Positions 12,669-29,505 of a stretch of DNA of 32,000 nucleotides are shown in pieces. Within the stretch, counting starts at the first letter, position 1, and each line of letters begins with the position of its first letter. The position numbers were made by a program, and so were the translations under genes. The notes under the pieces were generated by a model that had not been told where the DNA came from, did not search any database, and worked only from the letters and a program-made list of their open reading frames with translations. This DNA is from Methanobacteriales archaeon HGW-Methanobacteriales-1. GTDB lineage: Archaea > Methanobacteriota > Methanobacteria > Methanobacteriales > Methanobacteriaceae. The DNA lies in contig PGYO01000012.1 in assembly GCA_002839705.1 (NCBI GenBank), forward strand, positions 2,909 to 34,908. The letters run 5' to 3'.

Positions 12669-13439
12669 ATGGGAGAAGTAATTTCAATAATTAATCAAAA
12701 AGGTGGCTGTGGAAAAACAACCACTGCTGTGAACTTATCAACTGCACTAGCCCTTATGGATAAAAAGGTTCTGGTAATAGATTTAGACCCACAAGGTAAT
12801 GCTACAACTGGTTTTGGAATTCAAAAAGGCGAACTGGAAAATACTATTTACACTGTGTTGAGCAGGCAAAATAACATGGAAGAAGTAATGATTCCTACTA
12901 TTTTAGATGATTTGTACATTGTCCCCAGTAATATTTCACTTAGTGGAGCTGAAGTAGAACTTAGTAGAGAGATTGGATATCATTCTATTCTTCAAGATGC
13001 TATAAAAAGTGTAAAGGGAATGTTTGATTATATTTTAATTGATGTTCCCCCGTCTCTTGGCATACTCACCCTAAATGCACTTGTGGCATCAGATAGTGTT
13101 ATCATTCCTATTCAGGCGGAATATTATGCTTTGGAAGGAATGGCTGACTTATTAAAAACTATAAATCTTGTTGAAGAGCGTTTAAAGACTTCAGCTAACA
13201 TTAAGGGTATTCTAATTACTTTATATGATTCTAGGACACGCTTAGCCAGAGATGTTCACCAAGAGGTAAAGAAATATTTTGGTGAGGAAGAATACATATT
13301 TAAAACTACAATTCCTCGTAATGTTCGTTTGGCAGAGGCACCTAGCTATGGAAAACCATGTATATTATATGATCAGGAAAGTGCAGGCACTACTGCCTAT
13401 TTAAAACTGGCTCAGGAACTCATTAACCGGGATGGTTAA
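12669..13439 (+). CDS. parA: ParA/Soj-family partition ATPase
   Basis: Deviant Walker A NQKGGCGKTTT. The protein is colinear end to end with chromosomal Soj proteins as I recall them (DLDPQGNAT, IDVPPSLG, IPIQAEYYALEG, TIPRNVRLAEAPSYGKP). GGGAGGG precedes the ATG. Confidence 0.92.
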   Translation: MGEVISIINQKGGCGKTTTAVNLSTALALMDKKVLVIDLDPQGNATTGFGIQKGELENTIYTVLSRQNNMEEVMIPTILDDLYIVPSNISLSGAEVELSREIGYHSILQDAIKSVKGMFDYILIDVPPSLGILTLNALVASDSVIIPIQAEYYALEGMADLLKTINLVEERLKTSANIKGILITLYDSRTRLARDVHQEVKKYFGEEEYIFKTTIPRNVRLAEAPSYGKPCILYDQESAGTTAYLKLAQELINRDG

Positions 13440-16168: not shown

Positions 16169-17527
16169 ATGAGAATAGTATTGGCAGGTACTGGAAGTGC
16201 TGTGGGGAAAACTACAATTTCCACGGGTATAATGAAAGCATTATCCGAAGAAACTAAGATCCAACCATTTAAGGTAGGACCGGATTATATTGATCCTACT
16301 TATCACACCCTGGCCACAGGAAACAGGTCCCGTAATTTAGATTCATTTTTCATGTCTGATGGACAAATAAGGGGGGCCTTTGAAAGGGCCATGTCCATCA
16401 CGGGCTCAAAGATGGGTATTATTGAAGGAGTTCGAGGTCTTTATGAAGGAATCAGCCCTACAGGGGATGTAGGAAACACGGCTTCTGTAGCTAAAGCTTT
16501 GAATTCTCCGGTTATTTTAATTTTAAATGCTAGAAGTCTGGTAAAAAGTGCAGCTGCGGTAGTTCTGGGATTTAAATCCTTAGATCCTGAGATAAAGATT
16601 GAAGGAGTAATTTTAAACCAGGTGAAAAATCAACGTCATTATTTGAAAGCTAAAGAAGCTGTGGAAAAACTGACCAATACTCAAGTAATTGGTGGCATAC
16701 CTAGGAGCGATTCTTTGACTGTAGAGCAAAGACACCTGGGACTGGTCCCTGCGGTTGAAAGGGAAAATTTACTAGGATTTATAGAAAAATGGGGCCAGGT
16801 AGTCAGTGAAAATATAGATTTAGATGCTTTAAAAGGTATCATGAAAAATGCCGGAAAAATTTCGCCAAATCGAGAAGAACTTTGGAAAAAAGAAAATACT
16901 AAAAAAGTGAAAATAGCTGTGGCCCTGGATGAAATTTTTACATTTTATTATCAGGAAAATTTAGAAGCTTTAGAAGATAACCATGCTCAAATAGTCCCTT
17001 TCAGCCCTTATCATGACGAAGAACTTCCTGATGTGGATGCGCTTTATATAGGTGGGGGTTATCCTGAGATATTTTCTAAAGAACTGGAAAAAAATCATTC
17101 CATGCGTCACGACATTAAAAAGTTTCATTTAGATGAAAGGCCAATTTATGGTGAATGCGGCGGTTTAATGTACCTTACAAACTCTATTAATGGATATAAA
17201 ATGTGTGAGGTATTTCCTTATCCTTCTCTAATGACTGATAAAGTTCAGGGATTAAGTTATGTCATTTCTGAGGCCCAGAAAGACAATATAATATCTAAAA
17301 AAGGAGATGTCTATCGGGGTCACGAATTTCACTACTCTAAAGTAGATATTAATGCAAACCCTAATATTAAACCTGAATTTGCTTTTAAAATTCTTCGAGG
17401 AAGGGGGATTATAGATTCAAAGGATGGAATAATGTCTAAAAATACTGTGGCCAGCTATGTACATACTCATGCTGCGGCATGTCAAGGGTTTGCTTCCAAT
17501 TTTACTAGAAATGCTTGGGAAATTTAG
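16169..17527 (+). CDS. a,c-diamide synthase of the CbiA/CfbB family (cobyrinate or Ni-sirohydrochlorin amidase)
   Basis: 452 aa with the N-terminal P-loop [12 protein letters not shown] and a C-terminal glutamine amidotransferase Cys in [11 protein letters not shown]. The sequence alone does not let me separate the B12 (CbiA) function from the F430 (CfbB) function. Confidence 0.85.
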
Positions 17528-17612
17528 AAACAGGAATTGCTTGATTGATGCTATTTAACCTATTAACCTTCTAACTGCACGTTTATTTATAAATAATGTC
17601 AAGGCTGATAAT

Positions 17613-18881
17613 ATGAACTTAACTAATAAAATTGACGTATTTTCTCCGTATTTAATTATCTTTGCCATATTTTTGTACGTATTATTCGGTTTCATAGGAT
17701 TTTATTATAAAATAAGAGGATTAGAAGCACCTTCCATGGGTGTTTATTTATATATTTTATTTGGCTGCTGTTTTTTCATTGTAGGGATAATTTTTCCTAA
17801 GATGTTTTACAAATTCAATTTTAAAAGCTTTAAAACATTAAATAACTTTTTAAATTACCTATATTCACAAAAAGAATATTTAAAAAAGAATTTTAATCAA
17901 AATAAATCTGCAGATAAATCCCTTAATATTGAAAAAAAATTTTTTAAAAATTTTTCTCGTCTGGAGATAGTAATTTTATTTATAGTTCTCTTGGGGTTAT
18001 CTCTCCAAGCCATTAATCTCCTTTATTCTGGGGGTATTCCTCTTTTAAGCGGTTATCTAAAGGCCAAAGCGGTAACTAAAATATGGATAGTTTCTTATCT
18101 CTTGTTTTTACCAGGAATAAATATTTTATTGGCCCGATTCAATCGGAGCTATTATTATATTCTATTTATATTAGGAATAGGCATTTTCGCCTTGACCGGT
18201 TATAGAACCACAACTATAGTTATAATTTTAAGTGTTTTCATCACTCTATATTACACTCGAAAATTCTCTAAAAATCTTAAATGGATATATTTCGCTATTT
18301 TCATTATTGGTCTGGTGGGAATAGGCCTTTTAGTTGGATATATCTCTGCTAAATCTATTGAATGGCAAACCTGGACTTTAAATCCATTTGAATTATTTTT
18401 TTACCGGGCAGGATATACCTTGACTGTTTTTAACACATTGCTTGGAATGCAAGGGGCTACTCATGGTTCACTAGCTTATTATTCACTCATGGGATTTTTC
18501 CAGTCAGCTGATCCACGGGCTATTGTAGGAGAAGTGGTTCTCGGATACAAACACTCTGCCACATCAACTATATTTGGCCCGGCCCTCTTGGACTTTGGAG
18601 CCCTTGCTCTGGCCCTGCAAATGTTCTTTATAGGTTTGGTTCTTAAATTAATGCACTTAATTCAAAAAGCAAAAAAAGGAATTTTTACAGCATTTTATGC
18701 TATAATATTGGCCCAAACACTGGTATGGATTGAAACAGGCCCTACAGATCTGGTAGTATGGATATTCTATCTCATTTCCATTATTTTGACTTTATATGCT
18801 TATTTAGAATATAGGAGTTATATGAAAAGACATGAACTAGAAGAAGTGATGGAAAAGGACATGAAGAGGGAAGAACCATGA
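17613..18881 (+). CDS. polytopic membrane protein, Wzy/oligosaccharide-repeat-unit-polymerase-like (tentative)
   Basis: 422 aa with about 10 or more hydrophobic segments. Basic loops include GYRTT and YTRKFSK. A larger loop spans roughly aa 245-320. The stop overlaps the next gene's start (ATGA at 18878-18881). Confidence 0.45.
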   Translation: MNLTNKIDVFSPYLIIFAIFLYVLFGFIGFYYKIRGLEAPSMGVYLYILFGCCFFIVGIIFPKMFYKFNFKSFKTLNNFLNYLYSQKEYLKKNFNQNKSADKSLNIEKKFFKNFSRLEIVILFIVLLGLSLQAINLLYSGGIPLLSGYLKAKAVTKIWIVSYLLFLPGINILLARFNRSYYYILFILGIGIFALTGYRTTTIVIILSVFITLYYTRKFSKNLKWIYFAIFIIGLVGIGLLVGYISAKSIEWQTWTLNPFELFFYRAGYTLTVFNTLLGMQGATHGSLAYYSLMGFFQSADPRAIVGEVVLGYKHSATSTIFGPALLDFGALALALQMFFIGLVLKLMHLIQKAKKGIFTAFYAIILAQTLVWIETGPTDLVVWIFYLISIILTLYAYLEYRSYMKRHELEEVMEKDMKREEP

Positions 18882-19957
18882 AAATTGCAGTGGCTGCTGA
18901 GTTAGCTCCTGTTAAAACTATAATTCCTGTCCTTGAAAAATTAAATGCTGAAATCATTGGATTGGCCCATGGAAACGGTGCAGAAGAACTTCTAACACCC
19001 TATTGTTCTGAAATTTATTCTATTGGCCAGGGTCGTGGGGCAGGGGCCCGAAAAAGATCCAATTCAAAAATTGGATATTTAGTAATGAAAGACATCTTAA
19101 AAACAGTGCAAGCCATACGGGGAAACGGAATAGACTTACTAATCACCTGTGGGAATGCAGGGGATGTTAGAAAAGGACTTTCGGCGGCTAATTTACTTAA
19201 AATACCCACTTTACATATTGAACAGGATATTTACAATCCTATTGAAATGATTGCATTTGCTGATGTAGTTACTGCACCTTCTCAGGAATATAAAAACTAT
19301 TTAAAGAATGAATATGCCATAAAAAATATAAAAAATATTGGTGGATATCCTATGGCATCATTTGTAGATAAAATGAGGCTAATGGATAAAAATAAATTAA
19401 AAGACGCTTATGGTGTTGATGAATTCATTTTAGTGGCCCTAGGTGGAGATTTAAAAAGTGAACAAATCCCAGAATTAATAAGAATCATTGAATCCTTAGA
19501 TAAGACCACTTTAATTGCCCCTTTCAGATTTGAAAGGAATTATGTAAAAAGTTTAATATCTCCTCACATATCTTCTAAAATAAAAGTTTTAGATGGTTTT
19601 GTTGATCTTCCCAGTATTATGAATGCTTCTGATTTGCTAATCTATGGGGCTGGAATGGGAATAACCATTGAAGCTGGAGTTTTAAGGGTTCCATCTATTA
19701 AAATCGCAGGATTCCATACTAAACATGCCAGTGTTGACTTGGCCAGAGAATTGGGTATTGGTGTAGTAAAATTGGAAAATATTCCCTATGAAATTGGTAA
19801 TGTTCAACTGTCCGATGGCCTGAAAATGGTAAAAAATGCTGAAAAATCCGTTGACAGTTTATTGAGTATTATTAATAATTTTGAAGATTTAAAAAAATCT
19901 AAGAGTGGTTTTATAAGTTTAAAAAAGATTTGGAATGCCCGGTCAGAATTTAGATAG
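18878..19957 (+). CDS. GT-B fold, MurG/GT28-like glycosyltransferase-like protein (divergent)
   Basis: GIDLLITCGNAGDVRKGLSAANLLKIPTLHIEQD parallels E. coli MurG [32 protein letters not shown] (from memory). FILVALGGDLKSE parallels VLVVGGSQGAR. ASDLLIYGAGMGITIEAGVLRVPSIKI parallels [27 protein letters not shown]. The N-terminal GGTGGH loop is absent. Confidence 0.55.
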   Translation: MKIAVAAELAPVKTIIPVLEKLNAEIIGLAHGNGAEELLTPYCSEIYSIGQGRGAGARKRSNSKIGYLVMKDILKTVQAIRGNGIDLLITCGNAGDVRKGLSAANLLKIPTLHIEQDIYNPIEMIAFADVVTAPSQEYKNYLKNEYAIKNIKNIGGYPMASFVDKMRLMDKNKLKDAYGVDEFILVALGGDLKSEQIPELIRIIESLDKTTLIAPFRFERNYVKSLISPHISSKIKVLDGFVDLPSIMNASDLLIYGAGMGITIEAGVLRVPSIKIAGFHTKHASVDLARELGIGVVKLENIPYEIGNVQLSDGLKMVKNAEKSVDSLLSIINNFEDLKKSKSGFISLKKIWNARSEFR

Positions 19958-20101
19958 TTAAAATAAATCGTTTTTATTTCTATTTTTTTTAATTTGCTTT
20001 ATATTATATTTATTATACAAATTATTATTACTTTTTAAAACAATAATATTAAATATAATAATACTTATTAACTAATTATTACTAAAAAGGTTGTAAGTAT
20101 T

Positions 20102-20518
20102 ATGAATGCTCTTTCAGATGATAATTCTATAAAATCAGAAATCGTGATGCAAAGTACTAGCTATAATTGTGGCCCGGCAGCACTAGCCACGGTACTTCAA
20201 AAAATGGGAATAAAGTGTAATGAAGATGAATTGGCTAAGATGGCTGGCACTGATGATACGGGGACTACTATGTATGGTTTGATGAAAGCTGCCATAAAAA
20301 AAGGATTGAATGCTCGTGGAATGAGAATTCATGCTAAAAATTTGGATTCTGATAATATAGTATTTCTGAATATTGATGGAAAATGTCATTACAGCGTAAT
20401 TAACCAAATAAATGAAAATACAGTGATTTTATCGGATCCGGCCCTGGGAAAAATTGAATTGACCAAAAATTACTTTTTTAAGATATATTCTGGCAATGCA
20501 CTAATTGTATATAAATAA
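20102..20518 (+). CDS. stand-alone peptidase C39-like (papain-fold cysteine peptidase) domain protein
   Basis: 138 aa with Q...C in MQSTSYNCGPAALATVL, His in KCHYSVI and Asp in LSDPALG. This is the order and spacing of the C39 Gln/Cys/His/Asp set. There is no TM segment and no ABC-transporter domain. Confidence 0.7.
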   Translation: MNALSDDNSIKSEIVMQSTSYNCGPAALATVLQKMGIKCNEDELAKMAGTDDTGTTMYGLMKAAIKKGLNARGMRIHAKNLDSDNIVFLNIDGKCHYSVINQINENTVILSDPALGKIELTKNYFFKIYSGNALIVYK

Positions 20519-20725
20519 ATATATTCGGTTAAAAATATTGAAACTAATTTCCGACCGATTTTTCTCATATCAAAGTCAAAATTGCTCCCAGAAAGCTGGA
20601 ATAAATTAATCCCAATTTTCATTAATATGCTGGGCAGATTCATACTACTAATATAAAAACTTACCCATTGCACTTAAATCAAAAAGTACTTAATATCTCA
20701 ATCGATAACACATTTTGGTGATATA

Positions 20726-21556
20726 ATGGTTGTAAAAATCGGTATAATTAAATGTGGTAACATCGGTACATCTCCTGTTTTGGACTTATTACTTGACGAG
20801 AGAGCAGACCGACCAAACATAGATGTATGTGTAATAGGATCTGGGGCTAAAATGAACCCAGAAGAAATCGAAAAAGCCGTACCATTAATGCTTGAAATGG
20901 AAAGGGACTTTGTTATATTCATAAGCCCTAACCCAGGTGCTCCAGGACCTGCTAAAGCCAGAGAATTATTATCTGCTGCAGATGTCCCTGCAATCATCAT
21001 AGGTGACGCTCCTGGTCTACGATCCAAAGAAGAAATGGATGAACAAGGTTTAGGTTACATTATTGTGAAGGCCGACCCAATGATCGGTGCACGAAGAGAA
21101 TTCCTGGACCCAACTGAAATGGCTTCTTTCAATGCAGATGTAATTAAAGTATTAGCTTTAACTGGTGCTTACAGAGTTGTACAAAACACTATTGATGCAG
21201 CAGTAAATGCTGTTGAAGCTGGAAGTGCAATCGAATTACCTAAAGTTGTAATCTCCCGAGATGTAGCTGTTGCAGCTGCTCAATTTGCCAGCCCATACGC
21301 TAAAGCTAAAGCTATGGCTGCCTACGACATCGCTACCAAAGTAGCTGATATTGATGTTGAAGGTTGTTTCATGACTAGAGATGCAGAAAAGTACATACCA
21401 ATCGTAGCTTCTGCTCACGAAATGATTACTACTGCTGCTAAACTCGCTGCTGAAGCAAGAGAAATTGAAAAGGCTAATGACACTGTTGTTCGAACTCCAC
21501 ACGGTGGAAAAGGACAAACCATGGCTAAATCAGTTTTAATGGAAAAACCACAATAA
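20726..21556 (+). CDS. mtd: F420-dependent methylenetetrahydromethanopterin dehydrogenase
   Basis: 276 aa. MVVKIGIIKCGNIGTSPVLDLLLDERADRPNIDV... is near-identical in long stretches to Methanothermobacter Mtd as I recall it. GGTGAT lies 4 nt upstream of the ATG. Confidence 0.96.
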   Translation: MVVKIGIIKCGNIGTSPVLDLLLDERADRPNIDVCVIGSGAKMNPEEIEKAVPLMLEMERDFVIFISPNPGAPGPAKARELLSAADVPAIIIGDAPGLRSKEEMDEQGLGYIIVKADPMIGARREFLDPTEMASFNADVIKVLALTGAYRVVQNTIDAAVNAVEAGSAIELPKVVISRDVAVAAAQFASPYAKAKAMAAYDIATKVADIDVEGCFMTRDAEKYIPIVASAHEMITTAAKLAAEAREIEKANDTVVRTPHGGKGQTMAKSVLMEKPQ

Positions 21557-23505: not shown

Positions 23506-24135
23506 TTACTCTTTCGATTTATGTACTCGGTATAAAACAGAGAAAGAACTCATAATTATGGGTACTATTGGGTAAACTGCTAAGCTCCAGAAAGGACTAA
23601 TAAAGGAAATTGATATGGAAATTAATGCTATAATTGGTAACGAAATATAGCTTAGAATTATCCGTTTAGTGTATGGTCTGACTTTTTCCTCCATAAAACC
23701 ACCATAATAAGCGTATAAAAGATTAATTACGTATAAAATACCAATTAAGAACATATTAAGTCCAAATATTATTTCAGAAAGAGGGTACTGGCTGTAGGAA
23801 CCAATTAAGGAGGCACTAAAAGGTACCAAAACTACTAACATTAGCCAGAGGATATTTATCCAGACAAGTCTAGTATTAGTTTTCTTAATTAAAAAGAAAA
23901 TATGGTGATTTAGCCAGAAAGAACCCAGTAAAATAAAACTAAGTGCATAAACTGATATTTTTGGAATTAATTCAAAAACGTAATTTTGAAAATCAACAGA
24001 TGAGCTTATAGCTCCTGGAAGGGGAGCTTCAATACTTAAAACTAGTAGAGTCATTGCTATGGCAAATATGCCGTCGGCCAGGGTTTCCAGACGGGCGGTG
24101 GGCATGGTGAATTTTCTTCTGAGTTCGGAAGCCAT
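23506..24135 (-). CDS. TMEM175/DUF1211-family potassium channel-like membrane protein
   Basis: RLETLADGIFAIAMTLLVL matches the family signature (R.E.FSDGVFAIAITLL). The protein is 209 aa with six predicted TM segments. Confidence 0.8.
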   Translation of the reverse strand: MASELRRKFTMPTARLETLADGIFAIAMTLLVLSIEAPLPGAISSSVDFQNYVFELIPKISVYALSFILLGSFWLNHHIFFLIKKTNTRLVWINILWLMLVVLVPFSASLIGSYSQYPLSEIIFGLNMFLIGILYVINLLYAYYGGFMEEKVRPYTKRIILSYISLPIIALISISISFISPFWSLAVYPIVPIIMSSFSVLYRVHKSKE

Positions 24136-25731: not shown

Positions 25732-27291
25732 TTATATGGAATACTTTTCTATAAACTTAACCAATTTTTCGATGATGCTAGATATTGGGCCTAATTTATT
25801 TCCTATACGACGCATTAGTCTAACATCTCTTTTTTCAAATCCTTTTAAAAATGTAAAAGCTATTACATATATTATTGGTGCAATTATAATAGCTAAAATC
25901 AGCCCGAGGATTGTTTGGGGGATAAAAAACATTCCTAATCCCATGACTGCAGATGCTAAAGTTATTTTGGCAAAGGACATAAATGGTAACTTCACTTCAG
26001 TAATTTTGTAGGTTTTCCACAAAATGGGGATCATGATAACAAACGCAGTAATAGTTGTAGCCAATGCAGCACCAATTATTCCGTAAAATTGTATGAGGAA
26101 CCAGTTCAAAGCTATATTTACCACGCTCCCTACTACTAAAATGTACATAGGTAATCTGGGATAGCCTAATCCCTGAGCTATACTAGAAGAGACCATGAAT
26201 AACGTATAAAATGCCATTCCAATAACTAATATGCTTAATGCTCCTGCCCCGTATACATAATCAACACCAAAAAGAAGCTCCAAAAGAGGGCCAGAAAATA
26301 TTGCAATACCAATACATAGGGGAAGAACAGTTAAAACTACCATCCGATACGATTGAGTAACATAAGTTGTTAACAATGCTTTATCTTTCAAAGCAAAGGC
26401 TTCAGACGCGGCTGGAAGTACTGCCGTAGCTACTGAGAGAGAAATTACTAGTGGAAGGCGAGCTATAGGATCCACGGCGTTATAATAACCACTAAATTTG
26501 GTAGCCATAAAAATCCCCAATACGAAAATGCTTGCTCCATAAATAGACATTTCAGATAATGCAGTGATGATAACAGGTATGGAGAATATTAAAAGAGTCT
26601 TAATAAGCCCCATTTCTTGTCTAAAGTTGAATTTATGTTCTGGATCAAGAGAAGGCAAATATTTCCACATATATTTTCTAAAAATGATGATTGCAGAAAC
26701 TGCAGAGGCCATAAATCCTATTCCTGTTCCAATCACAGCTCCTGCCGCGTAAAATCCGAGCATGACCAGAATGACTGCAAAAACAATCATGAAAACTTGT
26801 TCCACTGCCCGGGTAATTACCACATATTCCATTTTATATATCCCTTGGAATGCACCTCTAAAAGCACCAACTATAACGCTGAAAGGGGTTATTAGTGCTA
26901 CTGCTTGAAGAGGAAGAGCTGCAGCAGGCTTATGCCATATATTATTAGCTATCATTGGCCCAATGAAAAACATAACTATGGAAAATAAAATTCCCAGAAA
27001 CATCATAAATTTTAATGATGTGAAAACCACCTGACTGGCCATTTGGTCTTCTTCAAGGGCTTTATGTTGAGAAACATATTTGGCTATGGCTGGAGGCAAT
27101 CCTCCTGCTGATAGGACCTGAAATACTCCTTGGAAAAATAATGTGTATCCTAATATTCCGTATCCTTCAGGACCCAGCATTCGGGCCATTAAAAATCGAT
27201 ATACGTAGCCCCCTACTCTAAATAGAAGATTACTAATCATTAAGAGGAAACTTCCTCTAAGTAGCTTTGCTGCGCCCTTACTTGTGCTCAT
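25732..27291 (-). CDS. MOP-superfamily flippase (polysaccharide biosynthesis / Wzx-MurJ-SpoVB-like)
   Basis: 519 aa with about 14 TM segments. The N-terminus LLRGSFLLMISNLLFRVGGYVYRFLMARMLGPEGYG is typical of PST-family flippases. Confidence 0.78.
   Translation of the reverse strand: MSTSKGAAKLLRGSFLLMISNLLFRVGGYVYRFLMARMLGPEGYGILGYTLFFQGVFQVLSAGGLPPAIAKYVSQHKALEEDQMASQVVFTSLKFMMFLGILFSIVMFFIGPMIANNIWHKPAAALPLQAVALITPFSVIVGAFRGAFQGIYKMEYVVITRAVEQVFMIVFAVILVMLGFYAAGAVIGTGIGFMASAVSAIIIFRKYMWKYLPSLDPEHKFNFRQEMGLIKTLLIFSIPVIITALSEMSIYGASIFVLGIFMATKFSGYYNAVDPIARLPLVISLSVATAVLPAASEAFALKDKALLTTYVTQSYRMVVLTVLPLCIGIAIFSGPLLELLFGVDYVYGAGALSILVIGMAFYTLFMVSSSIAQGLGYPRLPMYILVVGSVVNIALNWFLIQFYGIIGAALATTITAFVIMIPILWKTYKITEVKLPFMSFAKITLASAVMGLGMFFIPQTILGLILAIIIAPIIYVIAFTFLKGFEKRDVRLMRRIGNKLGPISSIIEKLVKFIEKYSI

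Positions 27292-28284: not shown

Positions 28285-29505
<1,221 letters not shown>

Follow-up and report, generated by a model that had tools for sequence, protein, structure and literature searches.

A Wzy-Type Polymerase Gene Overlapping the Gene of a Divergent MurG Relative: a Candidate Envelope Glycan Module in Methanobacteriales

A 32,000-nucleotide (nt) stretch of contig PGYO01000012.1 from the metagenome-assembled genome of Methanobacteriales archaeon HGW-Methanobacteriales-1 (referred to below as the window; G+C content, ~33%) contains two overlapping open reading frames (ORFs), the first encoding a polytopic membrane protein of 422 amino acids (aa) and the second a protein of 359 aa. 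By family membership, the membrane protein is a Wzy-type oligosaccharide repeat-unit polymerase, its polymerizing activity being predicted, and the 359-aa protein can be modeled with confidence as a cytoplasmic protein of the GT-B fold. Its family forms a distinct GT-B lineage, nearest to the GT28 glycosyltransferases by a modest margin. Our best explanation, to which we give about an even chance, is that the two genes form a translationally coupled operon that, with a flippase encoded nearby, would provide a minimal flippase/polymerase/transferase route for a lipid-linked envelope glycan, ancestral to the Methanobacteriales.

Pseudomurein is the sole archaeal wall that resembles bacterial peptidoglycan. 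Since the GT-B protein occurs only in pseudomurein archaea and the polymerase is unusually conserved, the module most likely makes the pseudomurein glycan strand itself or another glycan that builds on this strand. In the proposed route, the GT-B protein, a far-diverged MurG relative with Glu8 in the place of the catalytic His, a retained EQD motif and UDP-ribose Glu, and different donor-sugar residues, would add a second N-acetylhexosamine to a UDP- or polyprenyl diphosphate-linked sugar and complete a disaccharide unit in the cytoplasm. A flippase of the MOP superfamily would carry the lipid-linked unit outward, and the Wzy-type polymerase, with its 10 predicted transmembrane helices, would link the units on the outer face, where its invariant charged motifs are predicted to lie.

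Coupling of the two genes

The stop codon of the polymerase ORF and the start codon of the GT-B ORF share an ATGA (Table 1), an arrangement that indicates translational coupling. This overlap had been read in a first-pass annotation of the sequence, and its coordinates were reproduced. In a comparison of 75 non-redundant orthologous polymerase/GT-B junctions, the identical 4-nt overlap was present in 27, and in 65, which come from at least four genera, the genes either overlapped or lay no more than 10 nt apart. With 65 of the 75 orthologous junctions equally tight, the overlap is not a matter of chance. A Shine-Dalgarno-like motif, a TATA-box-like element, and oligo-T tracts together suggest a two-gene operon. 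The spacing of the TATA-like box from the polymerase start codon suggests a dedicated promoter with a very short or absent leader, and the T tracts could plausibly be an archaeal terminator that closes the operon.

It is very improbable that the polymerase and the GT-B protein are functionally unrelated and that their adjacency and overlap are a frozen accident of a compact genome. In many lineages, purifying selection does maintain each gene in the absence of its partner, but the order and tight spacing persist in those 65 junctions despite rearranged surroundings, the pair relocates jointly to a position beside the flippase gene in Methanosphaera, and every lineage without the GT-B gene that was checked carries the same substitution in its polymerase (D300H, described below).

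The membrane protein

The 422-aa protein matches Pfam family PF01901 (O_anti_polymase) over profile positions 1-335 of 335 (E = 1.8e-100; 337 bits against a cutoff of 24.2) and NCBIfam TIGR04370 (oligosaccharide repeat unit polymerase) over positions 3-395 of 396 (E = 1.4e-24; 86.8 bits against a cutoff of 40). The Wzy/EpsG-type identity proposed in the first-pass annotation is therefore borne out by matches above two curated cutoffs. Close orthologues that carry organism names are all from Methanobacteriales in two lists of the top 120 matches. The PF01901 family as a whole is also found in bacteria, and hence it is not restricted to this lineage. Identity among the orthologues is at least 46% across genera, with 67 invariant residues, a level of conservation that is unusually high for a Wzy.

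An AlphaFold2 model (predicted local distance difference test score [pLDDT], 81.5; predicted template modeling score [pTM], 0.85) and the positive-inside rule together predict ~10 transmembrane helices, with both termini inside. The predicted topology places a Lys-rich loop (aa 63-115) in the cytoplasm and a large loop (aa 249-329) outside, in agreement with the basic cytoplasmic loops and single larger loop that had been recognized from the sequence. Every motif that is invariant in the family alignment faces outward in this topology: GGIP 140-143, TGYRTT 195-200, EWQxW 250-254, YRxG 264-267, DPR 300-302, HSxTSxIxGPxLD 314-327, and ETGPTD 374-379. The charged residues R198, E250, R265, D300, R302, D327, E374, and D379 would accordingly lie on the outer side, and the modeled placement of the motifs is a Wzy/WaaL-like layout.

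A SEDS identity for the polymerase was considered and rejected. The first-pass annotation had loosely likened a segment at aa 314-329, with the sequence HSATSTIFGP, to the SEDS motif containing HTDFIF, and this likeness does not hold: there was no match to the SEDS family PF01098 at an E value of 1 or below, and alignment of the polymerase family with a two-sequence FtsW profile by hhalign gave a probability (Prob) of 0.15% and did not align HTDFIF with HSATSTIF. A Foldseek search of the PDB with the polymerase model returned no match. Because there is no detectable SEDS relationship, the pair resembles ftsW-murG by analogy, in order and coupling, and not through common ancestry of the first gene.

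The 359-aa protein

The AlphaFold2 model of the 359-aa protein consists of two Rossmann domains in a GT-B fold (pLDDT, 86.3; pTM, 0.87). Identity among orthologues is 47 to 58% across genera, and no curated family claims the protein: it scores 19.6 bits against Epimerase_2 (PF02350; cutoff, 30.6) and 22.7 bits against the MurG model TIGR01133 (cutoff, 250). Among 24 members of the GT-B family, Glyco_transf_28 (PF03033) is matched by 12, with an E value of 2e-4 at best and without reaching the threshold, and Epimerase_2 is the commonest weak Pfam match, found in 22. The Methanosphaera orthologue passes the PF02350 gathering score, at 35.3 bits, and is named a 2-epimerase by NCBI. In a separate observation, the orthologue in Methanobrevibacter boviskoreani (AbM4 group) carries an acidic, low-complexity N-terminal extension of ~150 aa, for a total of 525 aa, that is absent elsewhere.

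Searching 1.84 billion representative proteins with the profile of the GT-B family yielded 54 matches, comprising the full-length members of the family, fragments, and outsiders. The full-length matches with an identified source come from Methanobacterium, Methanosphaera, Methanobrevibacter, and Methanopyri, and the weakest of the full-length members is separated from the first outsider by more than 35 orders of magnitude. Three outsiders, all GT28 proteins, fall below an E value of 1e-3: two MurGs and one protein resembling monogalactosyldiacylglycerol synthase; this set includes no 2-epimerase. The two MurGs are the best outsiders and are genuine, as judged from the location of their genes in bacterial dcw clusters, with murD/ftsW on one side and ftsQ/ftsA/ftsZ on the other. 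The proposal that the 359-aa protein is a divergent relative of MurG is in this way upheld by an exhaustive search. Against the sequences of the PDB, the same profile gave only a marginal match to the C-terminal part of a GT1 protein.

The family was also compared with MurG and with the 2-epimerase WecB by profile-profile alignment. The control profiles consisted of five sequences each, unselected for similarity to the GT-B family and taken from plasmid or chromid records; an initial MurG mini-profile built from the best outgroup matches was dropped as biased, and hhalign of the family against single Escherichia coli MurG or WecB sequences was uninformative. The family aligned with MurG over 313 columns (Prob, 94.9%; E = 4.7e-8; score, 64) and less well with WecB (Prob, 75%; E = 2.5e-5; score, 45), but the score against MurG is only slightly above that of the control alignment of MurG with WecB (Prob, 93%; E = 2.5e-7; score, 59). 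On these scores, the family is a separate GT-B lineage whose nearest relative, by a modest margin, is GT28.

The alignments locate the MurG residues in the family, with reference numbering taken from the translated E. coli genes. The three MurG blocks that had been seen by eye were recovered: E125/Q126/N127 of MurG correspond to E115/Q116/D117 (HEQN is retained as H-x-EQD 113-117), G189/G190/S191 to G189/G190/D191 (the GGSQGA loop against GGD 189-191), and E268, the UDP-ribose Glu, to E265 (GALTVSE lies opposite GMGxTIE 259-265). The N-terminal GGTGGH loop of MurG, which had been reported as missing, corresponds to a deletion of five residues, with H18 of MurG opposite a near-invariant E8. The donor-sugar residues Q287/Q288/N291 (QQxxN) are replaced by H283/A284/D287, suggesting a different donor sugar or a different mode of recognition. 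The mapped residues of the family are invariant or nearly so, Methanopyri included, with two exceptions: Methanopyri does not share Q116, and A284 lacks conservation. E115, D117, GGD 189-191, and E265 are invariant throughout. Across both orders, the invariant positions are E8, P11, G92-N93-x-G95-D96-x-R98-K99, H113-x-E115-x-D117-x-Y119-N120-P121-x-E123, G189-G190-D191, P215-x-R217, G259-x-G261-x-x-x-E265, K275, G278, H280, and S285. From this pattern we infer that the active site is of the transferase type, that its base is acidic, and that the donor pocket is altered.

Structural comparison points elsewhere. In a Foldseek search of the PDB with the GT-B model, ranks 1 to 18 were all UDP-N-acetylglucosamine (UDP-GlcNAc) 2-epimerases (TM-scores, 0.6 to 0.72), the best being NeuC (5zlr; E = 5e-12; TM-score, 0.72), and MurG appeared at rank 19 (E = 1e-10; TM-score, 0.51). 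The first-pass annotation had itself named a placement among 2-epimerases as evidence against its proposal, but the GT-B fold is common to these epimerases and the transferases. We consider it improbable, nonetheless, that the protein is a 2-epimerase-type nucleotide-sugar enzyme, for instance one supplying the precursor of N-acetyl-L-talosaminuronic acid, with the polymerase merely coexpressed. Such a role would fit the structural ranking, the Epimerase_2 matches described above, and the report that no monomer of talosaminuronic acid has ever been found, its formation being presumed to take place while the disaccharide is made (PMC2812497). It would also fit the acidic residues E115 and E123, which lie opposite the acid/base residues E117 and E132 of WecB. 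Three of the five catalytic positions of the epimerase are not conserved, however, with R10, D95, and H213 of WecB replaced by A10, N93, and G189; at an alignment Prob of 75%, all of these individual pairs are approximate. The profiles favor MurG, both in the hhalign comparison and in the exhaustive search, and with MurG and WecB themselves scoring 59 against each other, the epimerase signal stands at a generic GT-B level. By stereochemical reasoning, moreover, N-acetyl-L-talosaminuronic acid is the 3,5-epimer of N-acetyl-D-glucosaminuronic acid, so a 2-epimerase is not obviously needed.

The flippase

The presence of a MOP flippase in the window, noted in the first-pass annotation, was confirmed (Table 1). 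In NCBIfam, the protein best matches SpoVB (TIGR02900; E = 1.5e-42) and then MurJ (TIGR01695; E = 5e-18), well ahead of the Wzx models. Its gene is divergently adjacent to the polymerase gene in Methanosphaera and some Methanobrevibacter and lies 5 to 8 kb away elsewhere, and the pair and the flippase are syntenic in Methanothermobacter, Methanosphaera, Methanobrevibacter, and the lineage of the window. The full order cfbB-polymerase-GT-B-(C39 peptidase)-mtd ... hisB-(TOBE)-flippase is common to the window's lineage and Methanothermobacter. As judged from the junctions and gene orders compared, the tightly coupled pair, with a nearby or adjacent MurJ/SpoVB-like flippase, is ancestral to the Methanobacteriales.

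Distribution of the pair

A scan of 185,579 species genomes detected a GT-B relative in 137, and loci were counted by species in the best 80 of these. All 80 are Methanobacteriales, one of them being labeled Methanomicrobiales. The contig with this label, "Methanomicrobiales archaeon" (JBNGDB010000022.1), has a full Methanobacterium-type locus (cfbB, polymerase, GT-B, mtd, hisB, and flippase) and is probably a mis-binned or mislabeled metagenome-assembled genome (MAG). The 359-aa family does not occur outside the two pseudomurein lineages, Methanobacteriales and Methanopyri; as regards membership in a core gene set restricted to Methanobacteriales and Methanopyrales, the GT-B protein is so restricted and the PF01901 family as a whole is not. 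Searching plasmids with the polymerase and GT-B proteins by tblastn gave no match.

Several features of the distribution weigh against a joint and indispensable role for the pair in building pseudomurein, and they argue that the pair is not universal in pseudomurein organisms. In 34 of the 80 species, all belonging to one Methanobacterium clade, the locus contains only the GT-B gene (cfbB-GT-B-mtd), and hidden Markov model (HMM) searches found no PF01901 gene within 10 kb of these 34 loci. Complete chromosomes are among those without the polymerase gene at the locus: CP099988.1, OY969932.1, OY969779.1, OY969914.1, and NZ_CP166866.1. The GT-B proteins encoded there keep 50 of 53 near-invariant residues, indicating that the protein works without the polymerase. 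At least 20 further loci have the reverse arrangement, cfbB-polymerase-mtd without a GT-B gene, and no pseudogene remnants of GT-B were found in their gaps; assemblies GCA_049723875.1 and GCA_030017655.1 are polymerase-only. On a tree of CbiA and Mtd, GT-B-only and polymerase-only loci are intermingled inside a single Methanobacterium clade, which points to repeated reciprocal loss. Relocation of the polymerase gene to another context was not seen among 80 metagenome loci, and the two top-120 match lists contained no polymerase clusters on chromosomes with a polymerase-less locus.

The pair is also absent in this form from Methanopyri, where the GT-B gene follows hisB and overlaps the gene of an unrelated 334-aa polytopic membrane protein (locus L005, 10887-11891), with neither a PF01901 gene nor a MOP flippase gene within 10 kb. 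The 334-aa protein was considered as a divergent polymerase orthologue and rejected, having no Pfam or NCBIfam match and, at the sensitivity of hhalign, no similarity to the polymerase. It is followed by a 205-aa protein (L005, 11896-12513) without a Pfam or significant NCBIfam match, and the two could be lineage-specific partners of the GT-B protein. Finally, no pseudomurein Mur ligase (pMur ligase) or MraY-like gene was found near the pair, either in the window, whose genes are in this regard housekeeping genes only, or in the tabulated loci, Methanopyri included; the association with such clusters that had been proposed for examination is thus not seen in either.

All five polymerases from polymerase-only loci that were checked carry D300H in the outward-facing DPR motif, where Asp is otherwise invariant, and they keep 57 of the 67 invariant residues. 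This covariation with loss of the GT-B gene argues for a functional link between the two proteins and suggests that both see the same glycan. Two polymerase-only Methanobacterium loci have neighbors of note. In one (L093, 11371-12192; MAG GCA_030017655.1), a heliorhodopsin gene (PF18761) occupies the place of the missing GT-B gene in the interval between the polymerase gene and mtd, a light-sensing rhodopsin being unexpected in a strictly anaerobic methanogen. In the other (L094, 17844-19019), a protein with pseudomurein-binding repeats (PF09373) is encoded ~7 kb from the polymerase.

Relation to pseudomurein synthesis

Assignments now exist for the peptide ligases of pseudomurein and for an MraY-like enzyme; for the MurG-like step, they rely on a different GT28 homologue of patchy distribution. 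No gene is known for the transglycosylation step, and homologues of MurJ are the presumed flippase (Leahy et al., PMC2812497). The first-pass statement that the glycan polymerase step is not assigned agrees with this report, and no mention of a polymerase was found in PMC10117817, PMC11915815, or PMC12996149. A further point against a core role for the pair is that a separate and more canonical MurG-like GT28 protein has been reported in pseudomurein archaea (PMC8993221).

The proposal that the pair accounts for the disaccharide and polymerization steps of pseudomurein is therefore sustained in part: the restricted distribution of the GT-B protein and the link to a flippase favor it, and the incomplete distribution of the pair and its lack of linkage to pMur genes do not. 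That the module performs core steps of pseudomurein synthesis we regard as rather unlikely. The single-gene lineages show that neither gene is indispensable in Methanobacterium, and since either gene has been lost repeatedly within one clade of this genus, the route there would be redundant with, or accessory to, another, the module serving as a redundant route or as the maker of an accessory glycan. High conservation, the housekeeping context, and affinities to MurG and to lipid II flippases, which are unlike what is seen in O-antigen or capsule loci, make pseudomurein the leading candidate for the product all the same.

Genes for Wzy polymerases and glycosyltransferases of accessory glycans are usually hypervariable and located in islands of sugar-nucleotide genes. 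It is possible, though doubtful, that the present module builds an accessory, non-pseudomurein polymer (such as a wall-associated heteropolysaccharide, a capsule, or the glycan of a glycoprotein) by a Wzx/Wzy pathway and owes its restriction to shared ancestry. Such a product would be consistent with the loss of either gene in pseudomurein-walled Methanobacterium lineages, with the lack of linkage to pMur or MraY clusters, with the serotype-linked Wzy candidates among bacterial PF01901 proteins (PMC5601056), and with the additional glycopolymers present on the walls of Methanobrevibacter ruminantium (PMC2812497). It is harder to reconcile with the high conservation of both proteins (at least 46% identity and 67 invariant residues in the polymerase and 47 to 58% identity in the GT-B protein), with their fixed place among cfbB, mtd, and hisB without initiating-transferase or sugar-modifying genes, with the occurrence of the GT-B protein in Methanopyri, and with a flippase closer to lipid II flippases than to Wzx.

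At the other extreme, the pair may be the missing membrane-stage machinery of pseudomurein. A MurG-descended GT-B protein would then complete the lipid-linked GlcNAc/GalNAc-beta1,3-talosaminuronic acid unit (GalNAc, N-acetylgalactosamine), a Wzy-type protein would be the transglycosylase, and the ATGA-joined unit would be a relic of a dcw-type ftsW-murG arrangement in which the SEDS gene was displaced in situ. We think this unlikely. It would have the single-gene Methanobacterium lineages fall back on other enzymes, the canonical GT28 paralogue and polytopic proteins encoded in pMur clusters being examples. Presence or absence of the GT-B gene, together with the D300H variant, might track GlcNAc versus GalNAc in the strand.

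Comparison with known systems

The first-pass parallel with ftsW-murG stands for the second gene by homology and for order and coupling by analogy only, and it fails for the polymerase. The polymerase-then-GT-B order with an ATGA overlap is that of E. coli K-12 (L007, 404-2712), where murG begins at 99644 inside an ftsW gene that runs to 99647, so that 4 nt are shared; the corresponding overlap in an uncultured bacterium (L184, 4950-7071) is 8 nt. Likeness to murJ/ftsW/murG extends to a GT-B protein that is a detectable MurG homologue retaining EQ(N/D), the GG(S/D) loop, and the UDP-ribose Glu, to a flippase of the MurJ/SpoVB type, and, as proposed, to the sequence of events, with a second sugar added in the cytoplasm, flipping, and polymerization of the disaccharide unit outside. 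The module differs in that its polymerase is a Wzy-type PF01901 protein without a SEDS signal and its GT-B protein has neither the GGTGGH loop nor the Gln pair for the donor sugar and stays below the GT28 Pfam and TIGR01133 thresholds. Unlike dcw genes, moreover, the pair is unlinked to Mur ligases or MraY, and its genes are dispensable in some lineages.

With Wzx/Wzy systems, the module shares a polymerase that passes the curated cutoffs and has the same topology, including a large outside loop with conserved Arg and acidic residues, as well as the accompaniment of that polymerase by a MOP flippase and a GT-B transferase. It differs from them in being a minimal three-gene set that includes neither an initiating transferase nor a chain-length regulator nor sugar-nucleotide genes, in standing among housekeeping genes with strong conservation across genera instead of hypervariability, and in having a flippase nearer to lipid II flippases than to Wzx. 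The 2-epimerases WecB, MnaA, and NeuC (PF02350) are the best structural matches to the GT-B protein (TM-score up to 0.72) and have the H-x-E ... P-x-E acidic pair in common with it, but equivalents of Arg10, Asp95, and His213 are missing, and by profile the family is no more similar to WecB than MurG is.

The archaeal MurG-like GT28 proteins and Agl24/Alg13-14 (PMC8993221) likewise include GT-B relatives of MurG in Methanobacteriales and Methanopyrales that have been discussed as possible pseudomurein transferases. By the description given in that paper, these MurG-like proteins belong to CAZy family GT28 and carry Asp where Agl24 has H14 and Leu where it has E114, as opposed to Glu8 and Glu115 in the family described here. 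These residues and the failure of the present proteins to pass GT28 models set the 359-aa family apart, and it appears to be a different family that was not previously discussed.

What the locus offers is a GT-B family that is limited to pseudomurein lineages and has true MurGs as its nearest relatives, coupled to an unusually conserved Wzy-type polymerase. If the pair builds the pseudomurein strand, polymerization of this archaeal wall would be carried out by a Wzy-type enzyme, not by a SEDS protein or a penicillin-binding protein, and the mitigation of methane would gain targets that are specific to methanogens. Otherwise, these organisms would possess a second conserved envelope glycan. The single-gene lineages provide a natural set for comparison with wall chemistry, and Methanothermobacter is now genetically tractable.

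Flanking genes and other features

The CfbB-type and Mtd genes that flank the pair (Table 1) form a fixed housekeeping frame around the locus across the Methanobacteriales.

TABLE 1 Positions of the pair, its candidate expression signals, and other genes in the window
Feature	Position	Strand	Details
Polymerase ORF	17613..18881	+	422 aa
GT-B ORF	18878..19957	+	359 aa
ATGA start/stop overlap of the polymerase and GT-B ORFs	18878..18881	+	From the sequence
GAGGG, Shine-Dalgarno-like motif	18866..18870	+	From the sequence; within the 3' end of the polymerase gene, 8 nt 5' of the GT-B ATG
TATA-box-like element TTTATTTATAAATA	17582..17595	+	Read by eye; 18-31 nt 5' of the polymerase start codon
Oligo-T tracts (T5 and T9)	19971..19991	+	Read by eye; directly 3' of the GT-B stop codon
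MOP-superfamily flippase	25732..27291	-	519 aa; 6 kb from the pair; Pfam Polysacc_synt, 1e-31; MurJ, 5e-17
CbiA/CobB-type a,c-diamide synthase	16169-17527	+	5' neighbor of the pair; probably CfbB of F430 synthesis
Stand-alone C39-family cysteine peptidase domain	20102..20518	+	138 aa; directly 3' of the pair; PF03412, 1.3e-30; no ABC transporter part
F420-dependent methylene-tetrahydromethanopterin dehydrogenase (Mtd)	20726-21556	+	3' flank of the pair
TMEM175-like K+ channel homologue	23506-24135	-	
Fae-Hps fusion protein	28285-29505	-	
MinD/ParA-type ATPase	12669-13439	+	Followed by an overlapping 170-aa ORF

Two long antisense ORFs across mtd (20698-21027 and 21236-21517, both on the minus strand) are without family support and are almost certainly not genes. 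Whether the C39 peptidase belongs to the module is uncertain: synteny of its gene with the pair extends to Methanothermobacter and several Methanobacterium lineages besides the lineage of the window, but the gene is absent from Methanobrevibacter and Methanosphaera.

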